A stretch of DNA of 62,162 nucleotides, filler included, from Catajapyx aquilonaris (Eukaryota): NCBI GenBank assembly GCA_000934665.2. It is 2 parts of 2 records of this genome, joined end to end, with 100 filler letters (N's around TTAATTAATTAA, not from the genome) between each part and the next. Parts side by side here need not be neighbours in the genome. Positions count along the whole stretch, not along the records: positions 1 to 30,938 come from JYFJ02004605.1; 1 more part is not named here. One strand, given 5' to 3'. A program made the translations under genes and the position numbers. Of this stretch, positions 1,212 through 55,518 are shown piece after piece. Within the stretch, counting starts at the first letter, position 1, and every line of letters begins with the position of its first letter. The notes below the pieces were generated by a model. That model ran no database searches. It was given only the letters and a program-made list of their open reading frames with translations, and was not told where the DNA came from.

Positions 1212-1905
1212 ATGGCGCCTCCTCCAAGGCAGTCCGCCGCCGAGTTCGTGCCAGAAGGCTGGGACAAGGGAATGCCTGAGGAGGACCGGGAGTATTATGG
1301 GGCTCTCCTCTACCGAGGCAAGGGGAAATTGGTGGACAACCTTGTCAACTGGTACCACCCGCCAGAGCCCCGAGTCGTCGGCATTCCCATCCCAGCGGCG
1401 TACTTCAGGCGGCGGCTGTTCTTGTGGGCACCTAAGAGGATGTGGGGCCTGCCCCTGCAGTGCCCTCAGTGTCAGCTGAAGGGGCTCTACAACCACGTCA
1501 GGGTAGTCCTCGACATTAGGGATACCTATTATCTGGTCGGCGGCGAGGAGGTACTTTGGGGCAGGTGTGAAAGCTGCGTCACATCCCCCCGTCATGGTCC
1601 CCCTACCAACTGTGAAGTGGTTCCTCGCGGCATACGTGAGGGACGTGCTTGGTCGCCTGGAGGAAGTGAAGGCGGGCATCACCTCCATCTACGGCCGGAT
1701 TATCAAAGTGGATTCCACGAAGAAGACGTGCCGGAAGCTGCAGGGGGATATGGCGGGAACTGCAGCATGGCTGACCTCCGTGGGGAATCAGCGTAGAGAG
1801 GTGCTGGCCAGCGTCCTCACCACCTCCGAGGCGAGTGACGCCCTGCAGGAGCTGGCCAGTGGCCTGGTGCGGCGGTTCCGGGAGGCTGCACAGGTGCCTC
1901 CACAA
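1212..1905 (+). mobile_element. Internally deleted fragment of a DUF6729-type (MULE-like) putative DDE transposase
   Basis: GC-rich island. ORF 1212-1796 has YFRRRLFLWAPKRMWGLPLQCPQC...VRVVLDI; overlapping frame 1567-1938 has SIYGRIIKVDSTKK...GTAAWLTSVGN...GLVRRFREAAQVPPQ. These match my recollection of DUF6729 proteins; DSTxK resembles the MULE first-Asp motif. The frame switch near 1560 implies a deletion. Confidence 0.65.
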
Positions 1906-2222
1906 GCAATACTGCAGACAGACAGAAGCAGTGCATGATGTTTATTTCAGGAAGGAAAGACATCCGACGCCTTTGGATATAGCATTTTCCATTCCAAGGA
2001 GTTGAACTTACGCATTACAATATGAAATGTATCCACTTTCACATGCCTCAATGACGACAAATCAATATGACATCCCAGGACGACCACATTGAAAAGGTAG
2101 CTGTTATTTGCATAATACTCAAGTAGGAACGGAGAAAGTGGAGGCCAATGTTAAAACATACTCCCCGATACTTTTGATGCGCTAAATTTCTGTTACATCT
2201 CATGATTGTACAGTAAGGTTAC

Positions 2223-3333
2223 GCCTGGCCCTCTCCTCTGCGTGTTGAGCGGGACCATACCACCGGCACTGCAAGCGAAGGCCATTTGGGAAGCGAGGCA
2301 GAGGCTTCACTCTGAAGCTGGGGCGGGTATGGCGAGGCTTCCCGTTCCAGTGAGGGACTCTCCGCCACCTTGGGAATGGAACAGGCCTGACATTGGAATT
2401 TGGAAGGAGGCGCCGACTGGGGTGGATCTCCTGATCTTTACGGACGGATCAGTCATGGGGCGGAAAGCTGGAGGGGCTGTGGTGGTGATGGACGGAGAAC
2501 AGAGAGTTGTCACCTGCGAAAATATCCCTTTCAATGCGCCGGGTGGCATCTTTGACGTGGAGCTGGCTATGATCGTGAGGGCCTTGGAGATCGCCTCCTC
2601 TTCTGCGCTGGAACATTCCGTTTGGGTAATCTCTGACTCCAAGTCAGCTCTTCAAACGGTAGTAAACCCACGCTCCACTAACGGATCGGCTCAATACGCA
2701 CGTAGACTGATGAAAGGTGACAAAAACATCAGCCTCCACTGGGTTAAGGCACATCAAGGTACGCTCGGGAACGAGCTGGCTGATGAGGAAGCAAAGAAGG
2801 CCGCGCAGCTCACCGTGGGTCGCCGCTTCTTGCCCATATCGGCAAACCACATGCGAAAACGAGCATTCGACTCGCAAATGGAGGCCTGGCAGAGGGAATG
2901 GGAGATGGGGGCTGACTCGTGGTACTTCGGATTCCTTCCATCGGCATCTACAAATCGCCACATCCATGGCCACTTGGCCCGAATTGTGTCCGGCCACGGC
3001 CCCTTTAGGGCATACCTACACCGTTTCCATTTGGGAAAAGGAAAGAACCGGGACGAAGAGGATGAGGTTGAACCTGCCGAGGCGTGTTGTCAATGCGGAG
3101 ATGGAGAGCAGACCCCAGCGCACATAATTTGGGCTTGTGACCTCCCCGAGATAGCCGCTGCCAGGGGAGAGATGCGTAGAGCGGCTGTATCTGGTAATTT
3201 TGGATGGCCCTGTTCCAAGGAAGCCCTGATGAAGGAACTCCAACCCAGCTTCAACACGTTCTGCTTAACAGTGGATCACATCCTGGCCCCATTAAATTCC
3301 GGGAGCATCGGGAGGGGAAACAAAGATGTTTAG
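2223..3333 (+). pseudogene. C-terminal part of LINE ORF2: end of RT thumb, RNase H domain and CCHC zinc knuckle
   Basis: RNase H motifs IFTDGS, VELAMI, ISDSKSAL, WVKAHQGTLGNELADEEAK; GHGPFRAYLHRF; CQCGDGEQTPAHIIWAC. The ORF-track start at 2206 lies in flanking DNA upstream of the TSD. Confidence 0.88.
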
Positions 3334-5965: not shown

Positions 5966-7810
5966 GTTGTACCAAGTCAAGTGTATCATACTACGCTGGA
6001 CATCCCTGGACCCCTTGGCCGGATAGGTGGGCGCAGGGCCCGCCTGTTTACCTGGATGCGAGCGCTGTTGCCAGGATTGGGTCCGGGCCGTTGCCTACCC
6101 CCCGCCCGGGTTGGACTCCGCCGCCAGGCTTTCTGGGCGTGTGGCCAAAGTTGCCGGAGGCTCCTCCCTTGCCCCCGGCCCCTCCTGTGCTGGCTGCCCC
6201 TCCAGTTCCTGCCGCCCCCTCGTCAATGGATTCCATCAGGGACCAAGTGGAGGCCGCCTGCCTGCAGCTGATTGCTGCGCAGGACCTCTTTGCCCGGCTA
6301 GAAACGCATGACATCAACGTAAAAGAGGGGCGCCTGCTCCAGTAGGCTGGTGCCCAGCCCAATCATGCGTACAAACTATTTTTTCCCCCTGTGTGTATGC
6401 GGACGGAGATATTTTGGGTTTTTCTGCTCATTTGTCTGTGGTGTTTTCTGTTCTTTCTGAGGTTTGGTTACTGGTATTAATCTGCTCCACTTAGTCGCAG
6501 AGCTGAGAGGGAGGGCTGTTTTGTATTGGCTCCCCTTGCCGGCAGTGGGGGGAGAGAACAAGGGGAGAAGGTTGGTGGCGAACTTGCAGGAAAGACGTGC
6601 GTTGTAACAAAGGCGGAATAAAACGTGAGTTAAGGATAATTCTGATTGTACTTTGCATGTTTGTGAAGGGTTACCCGCTACATCTTTCAGTTGCATTGTC
6701 TCACAAATCTTTAGATAGACAGTGACCAAGTACACTTGCATAAAAATAACTAGATCAAGTCTCTACAGACTACATTCTACACAATCCAAACAAAGCAGTG
6801 GAGGGCAAAGTGTTCGAGCATCTTCTCTATGTCAGGTCCTCCTAATCACTGTGGAGGGATGGTAGGGTCAAATCGTTTCAGGAAATGAACCATGTATACC
6901 AGAGAGACAACGTAACATTATTGTAGATTCATCAATAGAGAGAATGAGTGTGACAGGTGCCTGGGAATGAAGAGGAACATGCATCGATATTTAACTTTTT
7001 AATATCGCAGGGGCAGCAGTGGCTATAAGGTGCCAAAAGTAATATTGAAGAGATAAATGTGTACAAATTCTAAAATCCATGCAACAAAGAGCCATCCAAA
7101 ATAGGGCCAAATGCAACCAAATGCTGAAACAGCAGGCCGAATAGATGTGTTCGGAGTCACAGAACCATCAAGTCTTCGGCGCATTATAATATTAAAATAC
7201 CATCATGTCAGGTACAGTATATCTGACAACAGCGAAATATTAATAAATATGTGGCCTAAATATGGCCAATACACTCCCAGCTGCAAACCAGTTTGTGCGA
7301 CAGGGAAATAAAGGCCGTCGTGTCATTGGGTGGAAAGTATAGCAGAAGGAGGAGAAAAGGCTGAAAATGTCCCAGGACAAAAATTGTCGTCAGTGTCTAT
7401 GGAGAATGGCTCGATTTATCCTGGAATCATAATAATCCAGCGGTCCCTGATATTAAAGGTTCATCATATCCGCAAAACGTGATGCCATTTTGACATCTTG
7501 GAGGACGAAAACCAAGGATAGACTGGCTGCAGAAAAGGTGTCATCAAAATTTGATTACACTTTTCCAGGAGTAATATTTGGATTCTCTATCTCTATTATA
7601 TTTTCCCGAAATAAACCAAAGATATACCTATAAGAATAGTAAGCTCCATTAACGGAGAATAGTGTGTCATTAAACAATTTACCTTTAAGACGAGTGCAAC
7701 ATTTGAACCCAATTTCATTTCACGTATCTAAAACGTCATTTGTCACAAGAAGCTTTGTGATATGCAAAATACTTTTTCAGAAGTCAAATAATGTCACCAG
7801 AATTTGTTAA

Positions 7811-9521
7811 CCCATTTATGCCTAGCGTTCCATTATTGAAACGGCAGTTAACGCGGGAGTTATTTATATCCCACTGCTCAAGGGCATCACCCAAGGTCTG
7901 ACATATCTGCTGCCTGAGGGATATGTTACCATGTGTGGAGCAGAGTTAGTCACTCTGCTGCAGGTAGTGGTGTGCTGGGAGCTCCTCAAAAAGGGCTGTG
8001 CATTTTCTGCAACTTTTTGAAGACCCACCCAGATACAGGTAGATACAACTTTACTGCACTACATCCTATACTAGCAAATTTTTTTCTATTACTTCTCTAC
8101 TAGTTATGCTATGGTGCTGTAAAAAAGAAACTACCAAATTTATTACTGTTGTATTAGTTATGGGTTTGACATTTTGCATGTTCCATTTTTGGAGCACCAG
8201 GCAAAACCCCTACCACTAGGACTGATGATATCTTTTTCCCTTTTTTAAAGTTTAAAACCTTTTATAACCTGCAAGGTGCTTCGAACTGGAACTTTACATG
8301 AAATAGCTGACCTGTTAGAGACTGATGACAGCATTGGATCAAGTGCTATAGTGATACAACCATCTGAAAATGCTACATCGCCTGTTTCGGATGAGGACTC
8401 AGGAGATGACGAAGGTGGAACAATAAATAATCTGCCAGGTTCTTTGCTGCGAGCACCTGCAGATCTTATTCAAGATGGCCATGATGACGAGTCTGACCCA
8501 GATGATCCCTCACATCCACCTGAAGATGACTCGCTTGATGATGAAGTTCCATCAACCTCTACAGCGCAACCTCCTCCTCCTCCATCAAAGAGAAAGAAAT
8601 TGACGAAAATTGTTCGCAAATGGAAAAAGGCTGACCTAACTGCACAACCAGTAGCAGGTAGAGTTACCGAACCACAAAACGATTTCTTCGCCGAAACAAG
8701 AACTCCTGTAATGTATGTAATGCATGGAGCATTGTTGTTATAATTCTGTTCACAGAAATCCTTGAACTTTTTCTTGATGACGACGTTGTTGAACTCATTG
8801 TCACATACTCCAACTTATACGCTGCAAGTAAGTGTGTAAATCTTGGCTTGACTGGCTCCGAATTGAAATGTTTTCTCGGAATTATTTTTTCTGAGTGGTT
8901 ACGTCTCAGTTCCTAGAAGGCGTATGTTCTGGGAACAAAGAACAGACGTGCATAATGTACTCGTCAGTGCTTCCATGAGACGCGACCGCTTTGAAACTAT
9001 ATTTTCTAATTTTCATGTTTCTAACAATGCAAATTTGGACCCAATGGACAAGTTTTCCAAGTTGCGACCTCTCATGAACAAACTCAATGAGAGATGCATG
9101 TAATTTGTTCCAAATGAAACATATTTCTGCTTTGATGAATCCATGGTTCCTTATTTTGGTCGTCACGGGTGCAAACAATTTATTCAGGGAAAGCCCATTC
9201 GGTTTGGCTATAAGTTTTGGTGTGGTGCAACACGTCTGGGTTACATTTGCTGGTTTCAACCGCATCAGGGTGAACACTGAGATAATACACATGAGGAATA
9301 CTGTGTCGGTGCATCGCTTGTCAGTCAGTTTAGTGAGGCACTTACAGAGGCACATCCTGGACAATACCATTTTGTATTCGATAACTTTTTCACCACATAA
9401 CTCAAGATTGGAATAATAAAAAATCAAGTTCTTTTTAAATTCTCGTTCCTTGAATATTTCTGGGTAACCTATATGAATTTCATGCAGAAATTCAAAAATT
9501 TCAACCTTAGGCATAAATGGG
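7811..9521 (+). mobile_element. piggyBac DNA transposon, PGBD3/MER85-like, internally deleted
   Basis: TTAA TSDs at 7807-7810 and 9522-9525; TIRs cccatttatgccta / taggcataaatggg; ends match my recollection of the MER85 consensus; empty TTAA site in the paralogous copy at 12289-12292. Confidence 0.93.
8276..9396 (+). pseudogene. piggyBac transposase pseudogene, PGBD3-like (N-terminal portion up to the second catalytic Asp)
   Basis: LHEIADLLETDDSI...TINNLPGSLL...WKKADLT; after a 44-bp insertion (8707-8750) TEILELFLDD; +1 frameshift ~8890; YVSVPRRRMFWEQRTDVHN; stop at 9101; [37 protein letters not shown]; then deleted to the 3' end. Start codon reads GTG. Confidence 0.92.
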
Positions 9522-9823
9522 TTAATAGTGTCAGTTCGACAAACATGTAGCAGCCGCAAAACGTAGTAGAATCGACTTCTCTTGAGACGCATAAGATGAG
9601 CTAACATGCAACTAACATGAAAGAGAATTGTCTGCATTAAATCTTCTGCAGCTATCATTTCATTCCAAATATGTCCATGACTCCATAAATTACCTTATTT
9701 CACGTTTTAAAGTGAACCATCATAAACTGAAACACATGAACAATATCACATGCAATCAATGGTAGCAATAATTGCAGGTTGAAACTCTCATCACTTCAAC
9801 GTCACTTATAATACTCTAACACT

Positions 9824-10018: not shown

Positions 10019-10919
10019 TGCAGGTGAAGCGTGAGCAGCTCAAACATGATGTAACCTTTTAATTACATAGCGTCCCCGGGGCCGCCCTCGGGCCGCCCGC
10101 AAACCACAGTTCGCCCCTGGTCACACTCGACACCATTGCGATTCATTGCATTGGTGTGAGGACACGGCGGAAAATCCTACCTGGGGCAACGCACTTACAA
10201 AGCTGCCTAAGGTCTGGTCACTCATTCTTATCGCCTGAATTTGGAAGAAAAAAAAAATCGGGGCTGTGGGGGCTTGCAATTGAAAAGAAAACCTGGCCCT
10301 CAACAGGTTAAAGGTGTTTCGCCCACCTACGTAGTTAAGGGATAATGACCTCAACGCTCACTTGAAAAGGAGGCGAACCCGAGACGAAACTGTCCTCCCA
10401 TTTGACTTGGATCAAGACGTGCCATTAGTGTGCGAAGTACTGTACGATAAAGTCTTACGACCTTTTGAAACAAACAGTTACCAGCTTGAAAAGACACTTC
10501 ATGTTCATCAAACAGGTAGGTATGGAATGCAGTTCGGAATAACTGAAAGGACTTCAAAGTTGTGAAAAATGCAAATTCACAACAGGCCAGGAATACTCTT
10601 TTGCAATATATTATTAACTTTCACTTTTCCAGCAGAGTTGCTTAACAAAATGGAGGCTCCACCATCTCATCGCCGGAGGGCAATGCAAACAACCACGTCT
10701 CGATTGCACAATTGGACGGATAGCTGTAGCTGCTTCCATAATCTCGACCAGTACCGCCAGGACACCTTGGGATACAATTAGTGACAATGATTCACTACAC
10801 CTACACATTCATAATTTCAAGTCATTATTTACCATGACGGAAAGCTTCATATCAGTTGAAGCAGACGCCAACAGAAATATATAATAGCTGAAAACCTTTA
10901 CTTTTCTCAGCGTGACACT

Positions 10920-11105
10920 GGGCTAGTACGGGCATATCTGGCAAGATTCCGGTGCTAGCGGACGAAGATGGTGAGGGTGACCGATGTCCCTGTGGTGATG
11001 GTACCCAGGATGCATCCCATGCACTGTGGTGCTGGATGCTCAGCAAACAAGATGAAATAGCAGGCCGGATGGATTTGTTGGGAGTCGCAACCAAATGGCC
11101 ATGTT
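10920..11105 (+). mobile_element. 3' fragment of a second non-LTR retrotransposon (CCHC region), related to 2223-3476
   Basis: GLVRAYLARF, then after a frameshift DEDGEGDRCPCGDGTQDASHALWC...KWPCS, paralleling GPFRAYLHRF...CQCGDGEQTPAHIIWAC...GWPCS. Confidence 0.7.
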
Positions 11106-11517: not shown

Positions 11518-12138
11518 ACCGATTTGTGCAACTATGGGACACATCCCACACAAAGCAAAGGAAGACGAACCCTGACGACGAACCCCGATGATGAAGATCG
11601 TCCCAGGACAGCAGCTTTTTTGAACTCAAAAATTCTTGTAACTTCTCTATTCCGCGTTACGCCACCTTCATCAACATTTGAGGACACCTGCTGCCTACAA
11701 TGCTTAAGACCATAGGAGAGCAGACGCCTGCAACTTTACCAGAATCTGGCATCTCCACATGGTCTGTGTACGCATTAATAAATATGATATTCTTACAAAT
11801 GACACTTAGGAATGAGCGTAAGGCTCAAACATAGCAGTTTGGAACCGGCGTGAAAGCGCCAACACCGTGTCGCGTTGTGAATTTTTCAACATAAGTAACA
11901 CTGACCTCGTTCAGCATCAGAAGATCAAGGATTCAGTGACCTTCAAAGAGAAGCGAGACGAACCGGCACAAACATATTAAGAAAAACATAATGGTCACGT
12001 CCAACTCACTGGGACCTTCTCAGAGCACACGTATGCCTGCGGTGGTACTCAGTTATCAGAATGTTATTATATAGCAGAACTGAAATAATACATAGCAATA
12101 TTTCCATTGTTACCTATAATAATACACACAGTACATAG

Positions 12139-13048
12139 AGTGTGTAATTAAACAATTACTACCTTTATGACGAGTGCAACATGAACCCAATTTAATTTCA
12201 CGTGTCTCACGTCATGTACCACAAAAAGCTTTGAGATACGCAAAATGCCGCTTTGTCCTTTTCCAAGTAAAATAATGTCTCCAACTTGTTAATTAGTGTC
12301 AGTTCGACAAACATGTAGCAGCTAATGATCGTAGTAGAATTGAATTCTCTTGAGACGCATAACACGAACTATAATTATGACTTACACGTCTTTCACAGCA
12401 GAGTGACGTGCTTCAATGCACAAATTGCTGCGACTAGTTGCATAAAAAGTACAGTTGGCAGATTGACAATCAGAATTTTCCAATGTGCCTTCTGCATACA
12501 ATCATGCCCTTCAATTTGACTTGGATCAAAATGTGCCCATTAATGTACGAAGCATAAATCAAGTCTTACGACATTTTTGAATCAAACAGTTACCAAATAT
12601 TAAGTGAAAATACACTTCGTGTTCATCAAAAATGTTGGTATGGAATGAAGTTCGGAATAACTTTAAGGACCACTTCAAAGCTGTGAAAAATACAAATTTA
12701 GACCAGTTCTGGAATACTGTTTTGCAATTTTAACTTTCATATTTCCAGCAGAGCTGCCTAACAAACTGGAAAACACGCCATCGCATAGCTGGAGGGCAAA
12801 ACATGGAGATAAAATAATATCTATTGCACAATTGGACGGATAGCTGTCGCTGCTTCCATAATTTCAGCCAGTGTCGCCAGCACACCTTGGTGTACAATTA
12901 GTGATAATGATTCACTCCACCTACACCTTCATAATTTCAAGTCATTATTTACCATGGCGTAAAGCTTCATATCAATTAAAGCAGACGCCAACAGCAATAT
13001 ATAATAGATGAAAACCTTCACCTTTCTCAGCGTGACGCTGGGCCAGTA
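12139..13048. repeat. Copy 2 of the old local duplication; possibly a decayed P-element/THAP9-like transposase C-terminus on the minus strand
   Basis: Alignment to 7660-10925 is clear. Minus-strand fragments across the two copies (FHLLYIAVGVCF, RRGCLHCPP, FDEHEVSFQAGNCLFQKVVRLY) only loosely resemble P-transposase C-terminal motifs, so that part is weak. Confidence 0.6.
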
Positions 13049-17978: not shown

Positions 17979-18400
17979 TGGCAGTGAGCAGTTATCAACC
18001 TTCATACTATTCTCCAGCAGATATTTCCGACATCGGCAGTTCATCTGATGAAGACGAATGTGATGCATCGAAAACTTATCCACACGACACTATTTTTGTT
18101 ATAAGGAGTAGAAAAGAGCTCAGCGCGCAACTGACAATTTGAGGATGATAGTTCAACCTGCACATATTAAATACAACATAACTCATCAAAAAGGATATAC
18201 CAATGGAAAAAAGAACCATTCCATCACACTGGCATTCCTGGTGAGGACCACTCCACCTCACCTGGCAAGTCATCATCGCCTTTGAAGTATTTCACCAAAT
18301 TCTTTGACAAGGCATTATTTGAGCAAATATCACATCAGACAAATCTCTACTCAACAGAAAACCAGTGTAAGCATTTAAATACAACACCATCTGAAACAAT
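17979..18400 (+). mobile_element. N-terminal fragment of a second, unrelated piggyBac transposase
   Basis: Acidic DISDIGSSSDEDE, then YQWKKEPF...SPLKYFTKFFDKALFEQISHQTNLYS...LNTTPSE, typical of the piggyBac N-terminal region. Confidence 0.78.
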
Positions 18401-18423
18401 CTTTTATAGCAACACATCACGGG

Positions 18424-18621
18424 TATTGTCACTATGTCTTCGTGGATCTCAAATCAGCATTCGACAAAGTAGATCGAGTAAAACTAATGACAAAATTATG
18501 GAAACTAGGAGTTAAGGGGAAAGTGTGGAGGCTACTATGCAAAATGTACGAAGAGAGCATTAATACAATAGGAGCAGGCGGGGAAAGATTTTGGATAACG
18601 AATGTAGTGAGGCAGGGTGGA
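18424..18621 (+). mobile_element. Non-LTR retrotransposon reverse transcriptase fragment
   Basis: FVDLKSAFDKVDRVKLMTKLWKLGVKGKVWRLLCKMYE...VRQG (DxxxAFD and RQG motifs). Confidence 0.85.
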
Positions 18622-18635
18622 ACATGTATGTGCTT

Positions 18636-18776
18636 AATGAGTTGCTTAATCGGAAAAAAATGTATTTGCCCCCGTGTTGCAAACAAATGAAAAATTAACA
18701 CTCATGAGAAGGTGTCCAGCATGTACACTATGCATCAACTCATTCCTACGGAACACCAATTCCTAAGGATTCTACT
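18636..18776 (+). repeat. ~135-bp dispersed direct repeat, copy 2
   Basis: Aligns to 17197-17329. Confidence 0.85.
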
Positions 18777-34282: not shown

Positions 34283-34556
34283 ACCGAAGCAGGGGTGGCG
34301 GAGGGGATATGGTATCCGACTGCTAATCGGGAGGTCCTGGGTTCTAATCCCGGTGCCGGCAACTCTAACCGTGGTTTTCTGTGGTTTCCCACGGTTCCTC
34401 CAGGAGAATTGCGGAGTTGTTTCCTAAACTAATAGGCCACAGCCGCCTCCTTCCTTTCCTATCCTATCCCAAAAAGCGCAGTAAAAACGAAACGAAGAGT
34501 TCCAGTAAAAAAAAATATCCCCCTTTAGCCGCCGGCAGATAACGGGTATGAATTAT
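34283..34556 (+). mobile_element. tRNA-derived SINE family A, copy 2 (full head)
   Basis: 15-bp TSD tacttctcgtattta at 34268-34282 and 34557-34571; A-box-like gtggcggagggg and B-box-like ggttctaatccc; body matches 3524-3794. Confidence 0.9.
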
Positions 34557-35049: not shown

Positions 35050-35707
35050 CTATAACTTGTAAGATTGCAGCGAAAGGAGCTCGGGGGGAGGGGGTATATT
35101 TACACACATATTGTGGGTGATGTTTACCAAATGTGTATACTAGTTTTAGGATAAGCCCAAGTAGGCTTACATACTGTATTAATAATTGCATGGGCTACCT
35201 AAATTTCCTGAATAAATAGCGACTAAAAAGGGTTCCGATCAGAAATTGAGAAAATTCATTCCATTCTGGAGCGGAAAGAGAAAAGTTCATTATAGGCTAT
35301 TCAACTCTCGTTTCACACTTCTTATTGGCAGAATTATCTACCAATTTCGGATTCTTCCCCCCCNCCCCCCCCCCCGGAGACCCTTTATTTCCGGATTCTT
35401 TTAGTGGAACCAGGGTGTAAGAATTACTTTGAAAACATATCTTTAAATACACACAATTTCGTGCATTTGTGTCCTTTATTAAAATAATTAGCACCTGAAT
35501 ATGACCTGCTTCCGTCCTGTCGGTACGTTGCGGTACCCCTGCGACGCGACGCACTGTCTGTGCTAATTTGAAATTTATGCATCCGAACTCATCACTGCTA
35601 ACACTTCCAGGGATAGAGAAGTTAGTGCTAGAATCGGTTCGTCTGGGCCAGGGCACAGTGACGCGGTCATAAATCACTGATGTTATTGTGATGTACTAAT
35701 CTCACAA

Positions 35708-35960
35708 GGGCGACACGGTGGCCGAGGGGTTAGCGCCGCAGCCTTCCACCTCTAAGGTCCCGAGTTCGATCCCCGGATCGGACGGAGGATACTTATGTGG
35801 ATAGAGTTTCGATGGGTTCTCTCCGTGTTCGCGTAGGTTTTCTCGGGGTTCTCCCGTTTCCTCCCACTATCAAAATCCATCACATTACAGGCAAATGATT
35901 AAAGACGGTTATTCAAAAGATGATCCCCTAAGAGGCCCAAGGGGCCTATCACGGGGTATC

Positions 35961-42696: not shown

Positions 42697-42907
42697 CAGT
42701 CGGTTAAAGGAGTGTTACCAGACCCCTAACCTAGAAATTAGCCTCCAACAGAGGTGCTGCCTAGGGGAGTGAGATTTATTGTATCAGGGGGAAGAACAGA
42801 GGTGCTGCTTCCCCCTGATACAATAAATCTCACTCCCCTAGGCAGCACCTCTGTTGGAGGCTAATTTCTTGGTTAGGGGTCTGGTAACATACTCCTTTAG
42901 CCGACTG
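42697..42907. mobile_element. 211-bp near-perfect hairpin MITE with CAGT...ACTG ends (Tc1/mariner-like)
   Basis: ~98-bp arms from cagtcggttaaaggagt to actcctttagccgactg, followed by TA. Confidence 0.85.
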
Positions 42908-49693: not shown

Positions 49694-49965
49694 GCCTAAT
49701 AATAATAATAATAATGGATACCCCGTGATAGGCCTTGGGCCTCTTAGGGGATCTTCTTTTCGTAAACCGACTTTAATCATTGCCTGCGTGTGATGGATTT
49801 TGATTGCGGGAGGAAACGGGAGAACCCCGAGAAAACCCACGCGAACACGGAGAGAACCTATCGAAACTCTATCCACATAAGTATCCTCCGTCCGACCCGG
49901 GGATCGAACTCAGGACCTTAGAGGTGGAAGGCTGCGGCGCTAACCACTCGGCCACCGTGTCGCCC
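49632..49965 (-). mobile_element. SINE family B (V-domain-like), copy 2
   Basis: Reverse complement of 35708-36035; 14-bp TSD with 1 mismatch, ccttattaacataa (49618-49631) / ccttattatcataa (49966-49979). Confidence 0.9.
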
Positions 49966-51061
49966 CCTTATTATCATAAGAGAACGTGAATAATGCCTCG
50001 AGGCTAAGCTTCAGTTGGCAAAATAATACATTGCGGTTGGATATTTTTAGACAGATATATAAAGCCCTAGAAATTGCTTGAAAGTGACCTTACTCTTAAT
50101 TATATACAAACTGAATCCACTTGACCCATGCATAAATAATGTTGGCTTCCCATGCACCTCCACGAACGATAAGCCTTCATTGATCAGCTTATGGAATAGA
50201 CCTGCGTGAAAATCGATAGAAGACAAGAGAATAGCGTTCTATGCATAGCTATTGTTCATGTATCATGCTACATCTATAGTACCGCTACAGGAAATGATAC
50301 GGATTCATTTTATTACTCTCTATAGCCAACAATCACATGTTCTTAAGTACTATACATGGAATTAATAACTGCTTCTAACCATCCGTCGCACAAGTTCCTA
50401 AATCTGTCCCAAGTGCGACATAGCAGATAGCTGGTGCCATAAATGTATTCACACAAACGCTTTCGTTACACTCTTGGGTCCAACTCTGACAGTACGTGGT
50501 TTGACTTCTGGAGATGTAATACAGGTCACAATTTGCAATCAGGTGACTGACGTCCGGATCATCCGAACCGTTGGCCGATAATGTTGTCAGGGCTTGCCTG
50601 CGGAGAATTTGGGCGAAGTTCGGGAGGACTGTATTTGATGCATCTTCTTCTTCTTCTCCAAGTTGGCCGCAGTAGCTGATCAAAGCGAGAGTCTGACAAT
50701 AACAAACGCGAGAAAGGGGAGGATTGAAGAAGCATTAGAAACTCAATAGTTTTATGCAGATGTGACGCAGGCGTCTTCGCTATGAGGACCCTGGGGTAGA
50801 GCACTGACGACTGATTTAGCCAGAAATGCCAAGTTTCCGCCAATGAAAGTCCATAGCGGTCCCTTAAGGACAAAATGCACTATTCACGAGGATTATTAGA
50901 GCTTCTCGCTAAGAAAGGGCCATGGCCATATAAATTTTTATCGAATAATAAAATCTTCGGGAGTAGGGCAGAGTGATTTTTGGGTGTGCATTAAGTGCTG
51001 TGAGAATATTTCACATCTGACATCAATTTTAACGCTTTGATGGCAATTACACATTACCTAG

Positions 51062-55194: not shown

Positions 55195-55475
55195 TGATGA
55201 TGATGATAATAATATAATAATGGATACCCCGTGATAGGCCTCCTTGGGCCTCTTAGGGGATCATCTTTTGAATAACCGTCTTTAATCATTGCCTGCGCTG
55301 TGATGGACTTTGATTGCGGGAGGAAACGGGAGAACCCCGAGAAAACCCACGCGAACACGGAGAGAACCCATCAAAACTCTATCCATATAAGTATCCTCCG
55401 TCCGACCCGGGGATCGAACTCGGGACCTTAGAGGTGGAAGGCTGTGGCGCTAACCACTCCGCCACCGTGTCGCCC
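55141..55475 (-). mobile_element. SINE family B (V-domain-like), copy 3
   Basis: Reverse complement of 35708-36035 with (AAT/GAT)n tail; TSD not clear. Confidence 0.88.
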
Positions 55476-55518
55476 TTTAATCGTAATTATAGCTAGGTAG
55501 AATTTTAAAATTTTTGTC

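Follow-up and report, generated by a model that had tools for sequence, protein, structure and literature searches.

PGBD3 is one of the few human genes to have come from a recently arrived transposon. Cockayne syndrome has been discussed with regard to the PGBD3-CSB fusion, and MER85 copies serve as PGBD3 binding sites (PMC2268245, PMC3459987; available parts of both). How does a similar piggyBac copy come to lie in a non-primate genome, and does it link that host to primates? The copy stands in a 62,162-nt stretch of assembled DNA, which we call the window. An earlier note on it described a TTAA-flanked piggyBac with terminal inverted repeats and a transposase pseudogene, very close to PGBD3/MER85, and proposed that this lineage had shared a horizontally moving element with primates. 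Our analysis indicates that 7811-9521 is very probably a dead, internally deleted copy of a ~2.5-kb autonomous PGBD3/MER85-family piggyBac, and that the family probably spread by repeated horizontal transfer.

The element and its insertion site

The copy spans ~1.7 kb, with a TTAA on each side and terminal inverted repeats of 13-14 nt. Its ends and insertion site are as follows.

7807-7810, no strand: TTAA target-site duplication, left copy (the paralogous empty site has one TTAA)
7811-7823, plus strand: 5' terminal inverted repeat, 13 nt, or 14 counting the next base (inverted-repeat and exact-match searches)
9509-9521, minus strand: 3' terminal inverted repeat (inverted-repeat and exact-match searches, metagenome relatives)
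9522-9525, no strand: TTAA target-site duplication, right copy (sequence, inverted-repeat search, empty-site alignment)
12095-12380, plus strand: paralogous uninterrupted ('empty') insertion site, ~81-82% identical to both flanks (within-window repeat family D9, alignments)

The sole inverted repeat in 7700-9650 has its arms at 7807-7829 and 9503-9525 (23 nt with the TTAA counted, 91% complementary). Within the 62-kb window, the 17-mer made up of TTAA and the 13-nt repeat has exactly two occurrences, one at each element end, and none of 100 shuffles matches that count. Both flanks, 7620-7806 and 9526-9610, are duplicated host DNA, with ~81-82% identity to the one continuous stretch at 12095-12380. 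This paralogue lies 2.8 kb from the element and holds a single TTAA at the element's position. Because the empty paralogue has one TTAA and the flanks are duplicated, the copy is, as joined in the assembled sequence, a true insertion with TTAA target-site duplication. The TTAA duplication, short terminal inverted repeats (in the 13-15 nt range) and a DDE_Tnp_1_7 (PF13843) transposase together place it in the piggyBac superfamily, and every feature quoted in the earlier note was found in its place. A Pfam scan of 99 frames of at least 85 aa returned only transposon-type domains and no conserved host gene. For a 375-aa RNase H frame, no near-length candidate protein reached E 1e-10. In the protein atlas, look-alike clusters were commonest in Arthropoda, a weak lead on the host that no host gene in the window backs up.

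Relatives of the element were present in metagenome assemblies, where 24 of 80 loci match it from the first base at 79-91% nucleotide identity.

JGI metagenome contigs with the PGBD3-type family (n = 24): L001-L017, L019, L020, L050, L055, L057, L059, L071

The TTAA, terminal repeat and all three palindromes recur in these copies. L006, L055 and L057 stand on contigs of 14-18 kb. No repeat common to the window and the metagenome loci was found outside the element.

Gray et al. (2012) describe PGBD3/MER85 as carrying 13-bp terminal repeats and a 16-bp imperfect palindrome that lies 3 bp inside the 5' repeat and recurs upstream of the reading frame (PMC3459987, available text). The interior of the window copy contains the following features.

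7827-7842, plus strand: palindrome 1, PGBD3/MER85 transposase-binding-site motif, 3 bp inside the 5' repeat, 15 of 16 bases of the published motif (motif and offset from the available text of PMC3459987)
7843-8179, plus strand: 5' non-coding region, colinear with the metagenome copies and, by hand alignment, apparently also with the 5' end of human PGBD3 (metagenome alignments)
8180-8195, plus strand: palindrome 2, 14 of 16 bases, 80 nt upstream of the start-codon position (motif search)
8236-8275, plus strand: pyrimidine-rich tract ending in AG before the reading frame, 3'-splice-site-like by sequence (relatives have TTTCAG there)
8276-9395, plus strand: transposase pseudogene, PGBD3 residues 1 to ~364 of 593 (frames, Pfam, protein search, tblastn, alignment)
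8707-8750, plus strand: 44-nt insertion private to the window copy, frame +2 (L012 and L059 run through element positions 900/945 without a break)
9393-9395, plus strand: internal-deletion junction (metagenome copies L009, L010, L013, L015, L055, L057)
9415-9420, plus strand: AATAAA polyadenylation-type signal in the 3' non-coding part, at the same place in relatives (sequence, relatives' alignment)

The number of palindromes is not significant by itself, as 6 of 100 shuffles reach three matches at no more than 3 mismatches, and the weight of this evidence lies in their positions. In human PGBD3 the palindrome corresponding to palindrome 2 stands 59 nt upstream of the start (PMC3459987, available text). 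Palindrome 3, between the stop codon and the 3' repeat, is present in L009, L010, L013, L055 and L057 and absent from the window copy. The internal deletion ends just beyond it, so this is a loss by deletion rather than counter-evidence on descent. The splice-acceptor-like tract upstream of the frame has been described for the PGBD3 clade (PMC5381638), and the polyadenylation signal downstream of it for PGBD3-type elements (PMC5381638, PMC2268245; available parts of these papers).

Decay and family membership

A tblastn search maps PGBD3 residues 1-364 to 8255-9397. Pfam PF13843 recognises three of the five frame pieces (E 8.7e-8, 3.2e-18 and 3.8e-15), which jointly cover profile positions 4-179 of 349. 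For the N-terminal piece, 8249-8743, the best database matches are primate CSB-PGBD3 proteins (75% identity, 88% coverage, E 2.8e-57). The start codon has been lost, with GTG for ATG at 8276-8278, and the 44-nt insertion is followed by a further 1-nt insertion, read from the sequence in a T run near 8886, that brings the frame back. In-frame stops stand at 9101-9103 and 9278-9280, and an open stretch of 164 codons is left. Of the 92 variable columns in a three-way comparison among the window, PGBD3 and the metagenome majority, 64 are private to the window. These private differences are scattered along the whole frame and reflect decay of the window copy.

Six metagenome copies size the internal deletion at ~808-837 nt (~0.81-0.84 kb). 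It took the last third of the transposase, some 230 C-terminal residues, together with palindrome 3. The third catalytic Asp and the C-terminal cysteine-rich domain fall in the deleted part; with neither a complete DDD triad nor this domain, the copy is non-autonomous and dead, which has no bearing on its descent. The catalytic Asp at PGBD3 position 352 is retained in the window, while PGBD3 itself has Asn there, a D352N change reported in the available text of PMC3459987. A residue lost by PGBD3 yet kept here indicates that the window copy descends from an active element. Consistent with this, the codon majority across the metagenome copies reads open for 586 codons, with no stops and the catalytic Asp in place. 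The window copy is also closer to that majority in coding DNA (89.0% and 93.1%) than in non-coding DNA (84.0% and 85.2%, the former over 450 nt for 7811-8275), which again points to ancestry from an active element. The dN/dS of 0.56 was computed with the frameshifted part included and read out of frame. The metagenome copies themselves lie 2-8% from their own majority in 18 of 19 cases measured (L006, 16%), and the window copy lies 11% from it.

We propose that a piggyBac element inserted by cut and paste into the TTAA of a host segment that would have been duplicated beforehand. A stretch of ~0.81-0.84 kb, from the middle of the transposase to just past the third palindrome, was then lost. 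Faulty gap repair is the most likely cause, because the two BLAST segments that meet at 9393-9395 overlap by 3 nt, which suggests microhomology at the deletion. The remnant has decayed through loss of the start codon, the 44-nt and 1-nt insertions and the in-frame stops. The window copy is now without function. At most it may have been mobilised in trans while an active relative was present, since it still has its two terminal repeats and the 5' binding palindrome.

Across 351 comparable amino-acid columns the window is 74.1% identical to primate PGBD3, and its identity to six outgroup piggyBac proteins is 40-44%, in an alignment that is anchored on PGBD3 and may flatter identities to it. A protein search with P0007 returned nine proteins at 59-77% among the matches listed, all others listed being at 50% or below. 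In a tree from a quick search with SH-aLRT support only, a crown clade at SH-aLRT 95 unites the window with reedfish, galago, anthropoid PGBD3 and 29 metagenome rows, within a wider clade at SH-aLRT 100. The crown clade is star-like, with internal branches of 0.013-0.045.

At the nucleotide level, all identities to PGBD3/MER85 given here are approximate hand counts on strings printed in the supplement of PMC3459987. The 13-nt repeat equals, 13/13 by eye, the commonest MER85 left repeat among the Table S1 rows listed (30 places). The segment 7807-8203 agrees with the printed human PGBD3 5' end, of which the first 400 nt are given, in ~315 of 403 columns (~78%). One printed MER85 copy agrees at the 5' end in 75 of 91 columns (82%) and at the 3' end in 35 of 39 (90%). 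Judged by sequence, the window copy belongs to the narrow PGBD3/MER85 family and not merely to piggyBac at large.

The match of ends and transposase described in the earlier note was borne out by the 13/13 repeat, the palindromes at their published positions and the ceiling of 50% for other families, and the tree places the window inside the PGBD3 clade. Its 'four-fifths of residues' was right as to high identity and slightly generous as to the figure. 'Very close' holds in the sense of the same narrow family; as a sign of recent or direct exchange it fails, with 64 of 92 differences private to the window and metagenome copies nearer to PGBD3.

Origin of the family

The family is common to this host, which is probably an arthropod, and to anthropoid primates, galago, reedfish, a spider and the eukaryotic hosts of the 24 metagenome contigs, the patchy distribution that the earlier note had suggested looking for. 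Repeated horizontal transfer of a single active lineage accounts best for this distribution, and horizontal spread of the PGBD3/MER85 family is well supported. Non-coding similarity this high, with the 5' 400 nt apparently colinear, does not fit vertical descent from a protostome-deuterostome ancestor, so transfer at the level of the family stands, as the earlier note had argued from the non-coding ends. We infer a time scale of tens, not hundreds, of millions of years. The sharing with primates proposed there is upheld for the family and not for a direct link between host and primates, given relatives that are nearer PGBD3. The window host appears as one recipient among many.

The piggyBac superfamily is old and widespread. 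An ancient bilaterian element inherited in both lineages, with similarity kept by constraint, might therefore be considered, the more so as PGBD5 has been inherited vertically in chordates (PMC5381638, available text). This is the least probable of the readings weighed here. The window copy is a pseudogene, yet its non-coding DNA can be aligned at ~78-90% to human sequence (by hand) and at 84-85% to metagenome copies. Among mammals, the family is reported in the available parts of PMC2268245 and PMC5381638 only from anthropoids and, separately, galago. The star-like clade with its very short internal branches likewise contradicts vertical descent. An artefact, whether contamination by DNA from a primate or another foreign source or a chimeric join made in assembly, is very improbable too. 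The join of element and flanks is known from the assembly only, and the four sequencing runs that hold 97-98% of the element's words come from one sample; this may be the assembly's source, so it lends no independent support for the element. However, the copy is only ~74% (protein) and ~78% (5' DNA, hand count) like primate sequence, keeps Asp352, bears private lesions and sits precisely at the TTAA of a sequence with an uninterrupted paralogue 2.8 kb away. A further 19 run rows, among them runs labelled termite gut metagenome and runs of four other organisms, hold only 5-8% of the element's words and are no evidence of host or habitat. No RNA run was among the matches listed in this search.

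It is equally hard to credit that the locus is a domesticated or functional host sequence, whether a transposase gene cut short or a regulatory module based on the binding palindromes. The 164-codon open stretch is left, and the splice-acceptor-like tract and AATAAA are of exactly the kind through which PGBD3 was domesticated (PMC2268245). Against this, the frame has no start codon, two frameshifts and in-frame stops, its differences from relatives are mostly private and run across the whole frame, and the Pfam scan showed no partner exon or conserved host gene around the element. The intact frame under purifying selection and spliced to a host exon that characterises CSB-PGBD3 is absent here.

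Direct or near-direct exchange between this host's lineage, or a close relative, and early anthropoids, whether as donor or recipient, is a further reading that we consider unlikely. The 13-nt repeat and parts of the first 90 nt are by eye nearer to printed MER85 than to the metagenome copies, and the nearest tree rows by path length are primate proteins, at 0.32. However, the short path reflects short primate branches, PGBD3 being under selection with a Ka/Ks of 0.143 (PMC5381638, available text). Of the shared states, 19 link the window to the metagenome majority alone and 5 to PGBD3 alone, that majority is 93.4% identical to PGBD3 where the window is 74.1%, and reedfish copies, at 82-83%, come as close to the window as any other sequence compared. 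Neither the tree nor an AU test settles the branching order within the clade: a single vertebrate clade, a group named after seeing the tree, was not rejected (p 0.577), so the tree can neither count transfers nor give their direction. The direct host-primate link is not supported.

Repeated horizontal transfer of one active lineage, our preferred reading, leaves room for a more speculative proposal. The host lineage and the metagenome family might represent an arthropod-borne donor pool for the PGBD3/MER85 of early anthropoids and, separately, for those of galago and reedfish; we regard this as conceivable but doubtful. Were it true, the source of a domesticated human gene and its genome-wide binding sites would be traceable to a nameable arthropod group, and the palindromes bound by CSB-PGBD3 in human cells would have come ready-made from an invertebrate transposon. 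A look at viral contigs as vector gave 88 pattern matches, none encoding a relative, a weak negative based on two peptide patterns only. A literature search, with most subscription journals, Repbase and Dfam outside its scope, found no arthropod donor named and no MER85-type ends outside primates. The horizontal arrival of PGBD3 in primates is already published (PMC3459987, PMC2268245; available parts), as are relatives in spider and aphid (PMC5381638, available text), in line with the earlier note's remark that non-primate relatives had been seen before. With arthropod relatives in print since 2017, what is new is one more host, and the window copy adds a member to a known family. Non-primate copies with the same repeats, three palindromes and the ancestral catalytic residue show the element as it was before domestication and narrow the search for a donor. 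A single dead copy is a data point and not an answer. As a lead, the better-preserved metagenome family is of more use.

Comparison with known elements

Primate PGBD3, in intron 5 of ERCC6/CSB, and MER85 share with the window copy the TTAA target, the 13-nt repeat of most listed MER85 rows, the 16-bp palindrome 3 bp inside the 5' repeat and a second one upstream of the frame. PGBD3 additionally has a 5' non-coding region that looks colinear by hand alignment, AATAAA after the frame, a transposase 74% identical over residues 1-364 and a length of ~2.5 kb, as inferred for the full-length form of the window element. In contrast to PGBD3, the window copy is not domesticated, is not fused to a host gene, is broken by frameshifts and stops, keeps Asp in place of Asn and lies in a non-primate host. 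Its deletion of ~0.8 kb is far smaller than the one that formed MER85, which keeps only ~100 + 40 bp (PMC3459987, available text).

The arthropod PGBD3-like elements of Bouallegue et al. (PMC5381638) are, like the window copy, decayed non-primate members of the PGBD3 clade, and were found as multicopy sequences. Upstream they too have a splice-acceptor-like tract, and downstream a polyadenylation signal. The available text of that paper does not mention MER85-like terminal repeats or palindromes. Over 139 columns, the Stegodyphus protein P0018 and the window are 80.6% identical, and P0018 falls just outside the SH-aLRT-95 clade of window, reedfish, galago and primates. The type element, Trichoplusia ni piggyBac (IFP2), resembles the window copy in its TTAA-specific cut-and-paste movement, short terminal repeats and DDE_Tnp_1_7 transposase, and its internal palindrome likewise lies 3 bp from the 5' repeat (PMC3459987, available text). 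It nevertheless belongs to a different family, the nearest insect proteins outside the PGBD3 clade being only 40-44% identical to the window. The metagenome family, by comparison, is the same element end to end, with the same TTAA, terminal repeat, reading frame and 3' end, and differs from the window copy in being younger or better kept, with neither the 44-nt insertion nor the internal deletion.

The element, its host flanks and the surrounding window

The piggyBac copy at 7807-9525 runs from a TTAA through a 13-14-nt terminal repeat, a 1.7 kb interior and the inverse repeat to a second TTAA. The sole inverted repeat reported in 7700-9650 has arms at 7807-7829 and 9503-9525 (23 nt, 91% complementary). 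The 17-mer formed by TTAA and the terminal repeat has two exact matches in the 62-kb window, which are the two element ends; two more window sites carry 3 mismatches, and four matches arose in 0/100 shuffles. The flanking DNA has a second, unbroken copy in the window (repeat family D9), with 81-82% column identity between flanks and empty paralogue:

7620-7806: left flank, aligning with 12095-12293, through a TTAA inclusive
From 9522 onward: right flank, running on in the paralogue straight after its TTAA

The element inserted into one member of an old pair of paralogous segments, duplicating the TTAA, and the empty paralogue shows the element's flanks to be the host's own DNA. Since piggyBac excision is precise, that paralogue may or may not once have been occupied. 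The TTAA-flanked element with terminal inverted repeats described in the earlier note is thus borne out by its 23-nt arms and by the single TTAA of the paralogue. In the wider surroundings a few kilobases have been duplicated locally (10487-10928 with 12605-13048; 7620-9610 with 12095-12380; 82-90% identical), and one of the duplicates is broken by the piggyBac copy.

The claim of a transposase pseudogene also stands. Three of the five stop-to-stop pieces match Pfam PF13843 and together span positions 4-179 of the 349 in the profile, and tblastn with a primate CSB-PGBD3 protein (P0002) aligned PGBD3 residues 1 to ~364 on window 8255-9397. The frame carries the following lesions:

8276-8278: lost start codon, GTG, where 10/10 aligned relatives have ATG
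8707-8750: 44-nt insertion; metagenome loci L012 and L059 are continuous across the site
Near 8886: compensating 1-nt insertion, read from the sequence and frames
9101-9103 and 9278-9280: in-frame stops
9393-9395: internal deletion junction

Two BLAST segments overlap by 3 nt at the junction, and six metagenome relatives (L009, L010, L013, L015, L055 and L057) have 808-837 nt between its sides. Compared with metagenome relatives, the deleted part comprises the last ~230 residues and palindrome 3, the third copy of the 16-bp transposase-binding motif, which in relatives sits immediately ahead of the point where the window resumes. The full-length element would be about 2.5 kb, as given for PGBD3 (~2.5 kb; PMC3459987).

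A Pfam scan of 99 of the 111 window frames of at least 85 aa gave transposon domains only (DUF6729, RNase H/RVT, RVT_1, plus a weak second match of piggyBac type). These domains, and repeats noted elsewhere in the window, are:

1212-1793: DUF6729 open frame, followed by the RNase H/RVT_3 frame
2206-3330: RNase H/RVT_3 open frame, 375 aa
3536-3761 and 34296-34535: repeat pair, 76-89% identical
18171-18512: second piggyBac-like fragment (PF13843, E 1.6e-4, narrowly missing the curated threshold), unrelated to the element
18379-18687: reverse-transcriptase fragment RVT_1, overlapping the piggyBac-like fragment
35706-35894, 49789-49982 and 55289-55492: ~190-nt repeat, three copies, 92-96% identical, one inverted
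42713-42889: near-perfect hairpin whose two arms of 82 nt (99% complementary) enclose a 13-nt spacer

PGBD3 proteins gave no match to the fragment at 18171-18512. The frames at 1212-3330 are probably the tail of a young retroelement; the RNase H frame has no near-length homologue at E 1e-10 or better, and its look-alikes in the protein atlas are most commonly from Arthropoda, a weak lead to the host's taxon. Each ~190-nt repeat copy adjoins a long ATT/AAT microsatellite, and the repeat may be a SINE or MITE whose tail is a microsatellite. The first 46 nt of the repeat pair resemble a tRNA-derived SINE head.

Placement within the PGBD3 family

The N-terminal piece of the pseudogene was matched by 15 proteins at E 0.001 or better among 825 candidates, the best being primate CSB-PGBD3 (75% identity, 88% coverage, E 2.8e-57). 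A search with P0007, a full-length relative, gave 1257 proteins at E 1e-50 or better; among the 120 of these that were listed, nine share 59-77% identity (galago, reedfish and the spider Stegodyphus mimosarum, plus ENA, JGI and Logan entries) and every other listed match has at most 50%. In a PGBD3-anchored alignment the window shares 74.1% identity with PGBD3 over 351 columns, 82-83% with two reedfish proteins, 80.6% with the spider and 62% with galago, against 40-44% with six outgroup proteins. A quick IQ-TREE analysis of 47 rows placed the window in a clade (SH-aLRT 95) with reedfish, galago, anthropoid PGBD3 and 29 metagenome rows, in which internal branches are merely 0.013-0.045 long and the window's own is 0.23; Stegodyphus falls just outside. 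The AU test did not reject grouping the six vertebrate rows, chosen after the tree was seen, in one clade (p 0.577). Membership of the transposase in the PGBD3 family is upheld. The reedfish Erpetoichthys calabaricus copies (P0010 and P0017), of the same family, share 84-87% identity with PGBD3 and 82-83% with the window.

The DNA signals of the family were compared with published descriptions. Gray et al. 2012 (PMC3459987) give the MER85/PGBD3 terminal repeats as 13 bp long and place a 16-bp imperfect palindrome, the binding site of PGBD3 transposase, at three points: 3 bp in from the 5' repeat, 59 bp ahead of the ORF, and in the stretch separating the stop codon from the 3' repeat. The window has two such sites and no further one:

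7827-7842: palindrome 1, 1 mismatch, offset inward from the 5' repeat by exactly 3 bp
8180-8195: palindrome 2, 2 mismatches, 80 nt ahead of the start position

Their count alone is unremarkable (3 matches in 6/100 shuffles); the weight of the palindromes lies in their positions. Human PGBD3 (its first 400 nt) and numerous MER85 copies are given as sequence in Table S1 of PMC3459987, and our alignments to these strings were made by hand, so that the figures are approximate. The 13-nt window repeat equals the commonest L-TIR entry among the Table S1 rows shown. One complete MER85 copy matches at ~75/91 columns of its 5' part and ~35/39 of its 3' part, and window 7807-8203 matches the PGBD3 5' end at ~315/403 columns (~78%), with long identical runs within plainly non-coding sequence. 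A computed echo of this likeness comes from the predicted reedfish protein P0010, whose N-terminal end is a translation running through the non-coding DNA that surrounds palindrome 2; this stretch agrees with the translation of window 8183-8248 at 18 of 22 residues. The proposed match to MER85/PGBD3 ends is suggested at the level of approximate hand alignment.

The metagenome family and the ancestry of the copy

A metagenome scan yielded 477 pattern matches, 310 confirmed relatives and 80 kept loci, 24 of which share 79-91% nucleotide identity with the element, several starting at its first base:

L001-L017, L019, L020, L050, L055, L057, L059 and L071: metagenome contig loci

Their flanks differ, while TTAA, palindromes and 3' end are the same and the terminal repeat differs by one base. 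All 24 copies are broken, with longest frames of 127-380 aa. A protein majority for which 19 loci were combined with 5 JGI proteins, 24 rows in all (duplicates L008, L010, L011, L019 and L057 dropped), is 93.4% identical to primate PGBD3 (541/579 columns) and 78.8% to the window. Taken codon by codon, the 19 loci have as their majority an open frame in which 586 codons were called and 0 were stops, and the majority keeps the catalytic Asp. This multicopy family, carried by eukaryotic hosts, is the closest non-primate relative of PGBD3 among everything compared.

In 344 columns shared by window, majority and PGBD3, 252 agree in all three, 64 are window-private, 19 unite window and majority, 5 unite window and PGBD3, and 4 differ in all. 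Position 352 of PGBD3 is Asp in window and majority and Asn in PGBD3, a change described as the likely end of PGBD3 activity (PMC3459987). The Asp in the window copy argues for descent from an active element and rules out the domesticated PGBD3 gene as its source.

In nucleotides the window agrees with the metagenome majority at 89.0% of 1650 nt (K2P 0.119), and 18 of the 19 metagenome copies lie 2-8% from their own majority (L006, 16%). Coding segments of the window (89.0% and 93.1%) are nearer to the majority than non-coding ones (84.0% and 85.2%), and dN/dS to that majority is 0.56, both terms being inflated by the frameshifted stretch. On these values, part of the divergence dates from an active phase of the lineages and the remainder from decay in place.

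Probable horizontal transfer and known relatives

Vertical descent from an arthropod-vertebrate common ancestor is all but ruled out, since the non-coding DNA of a dead element is, by approximate hand alignment, 78-90% like its human counterpart. In mammals the published range of the PGBD3 family is anthropoids, with galago as a separate invasion (PMC2268245, PMC5381638). The star-like clade of primates, polypterid fish, spider, host and metagenome hosts most probably records a single active lineage that was transferred horizontally time and again over a limited period. On these data the host does not stand out as the partner of primates; PGBD3 is closer to the metagenome family, and the tree does not settle the branching order. 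The observation in the earlier note is thus confirmed, and its interpretation, that this lineage shared a horizontally moving element with primates, is supported at family level, the host-primate partnership not being singled out. Our literature search, which covered few subscription journals and no repeat databases, turned up no mention of a named donor, of PGBD3 copies in reedfish, or of ends or palindromes of MER85 type in non-primates. Of the by-products, the well-preserved PGBD3/MER85-type metagenome family is the most useful.

Horizontal arrival of PGBD3 in primates is itself stated in PMC3459987 and discussed in PMC2268245, and spider and aphid sequences have already been placed next to PGBD3 (Bouallegue et al. 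2017, PMC5381638). That study describes a splice-acceptor-like tract and a polyadenylation signal common to PGBD3 and its arthropod relatives, and both features occur in the window and its relatives too.
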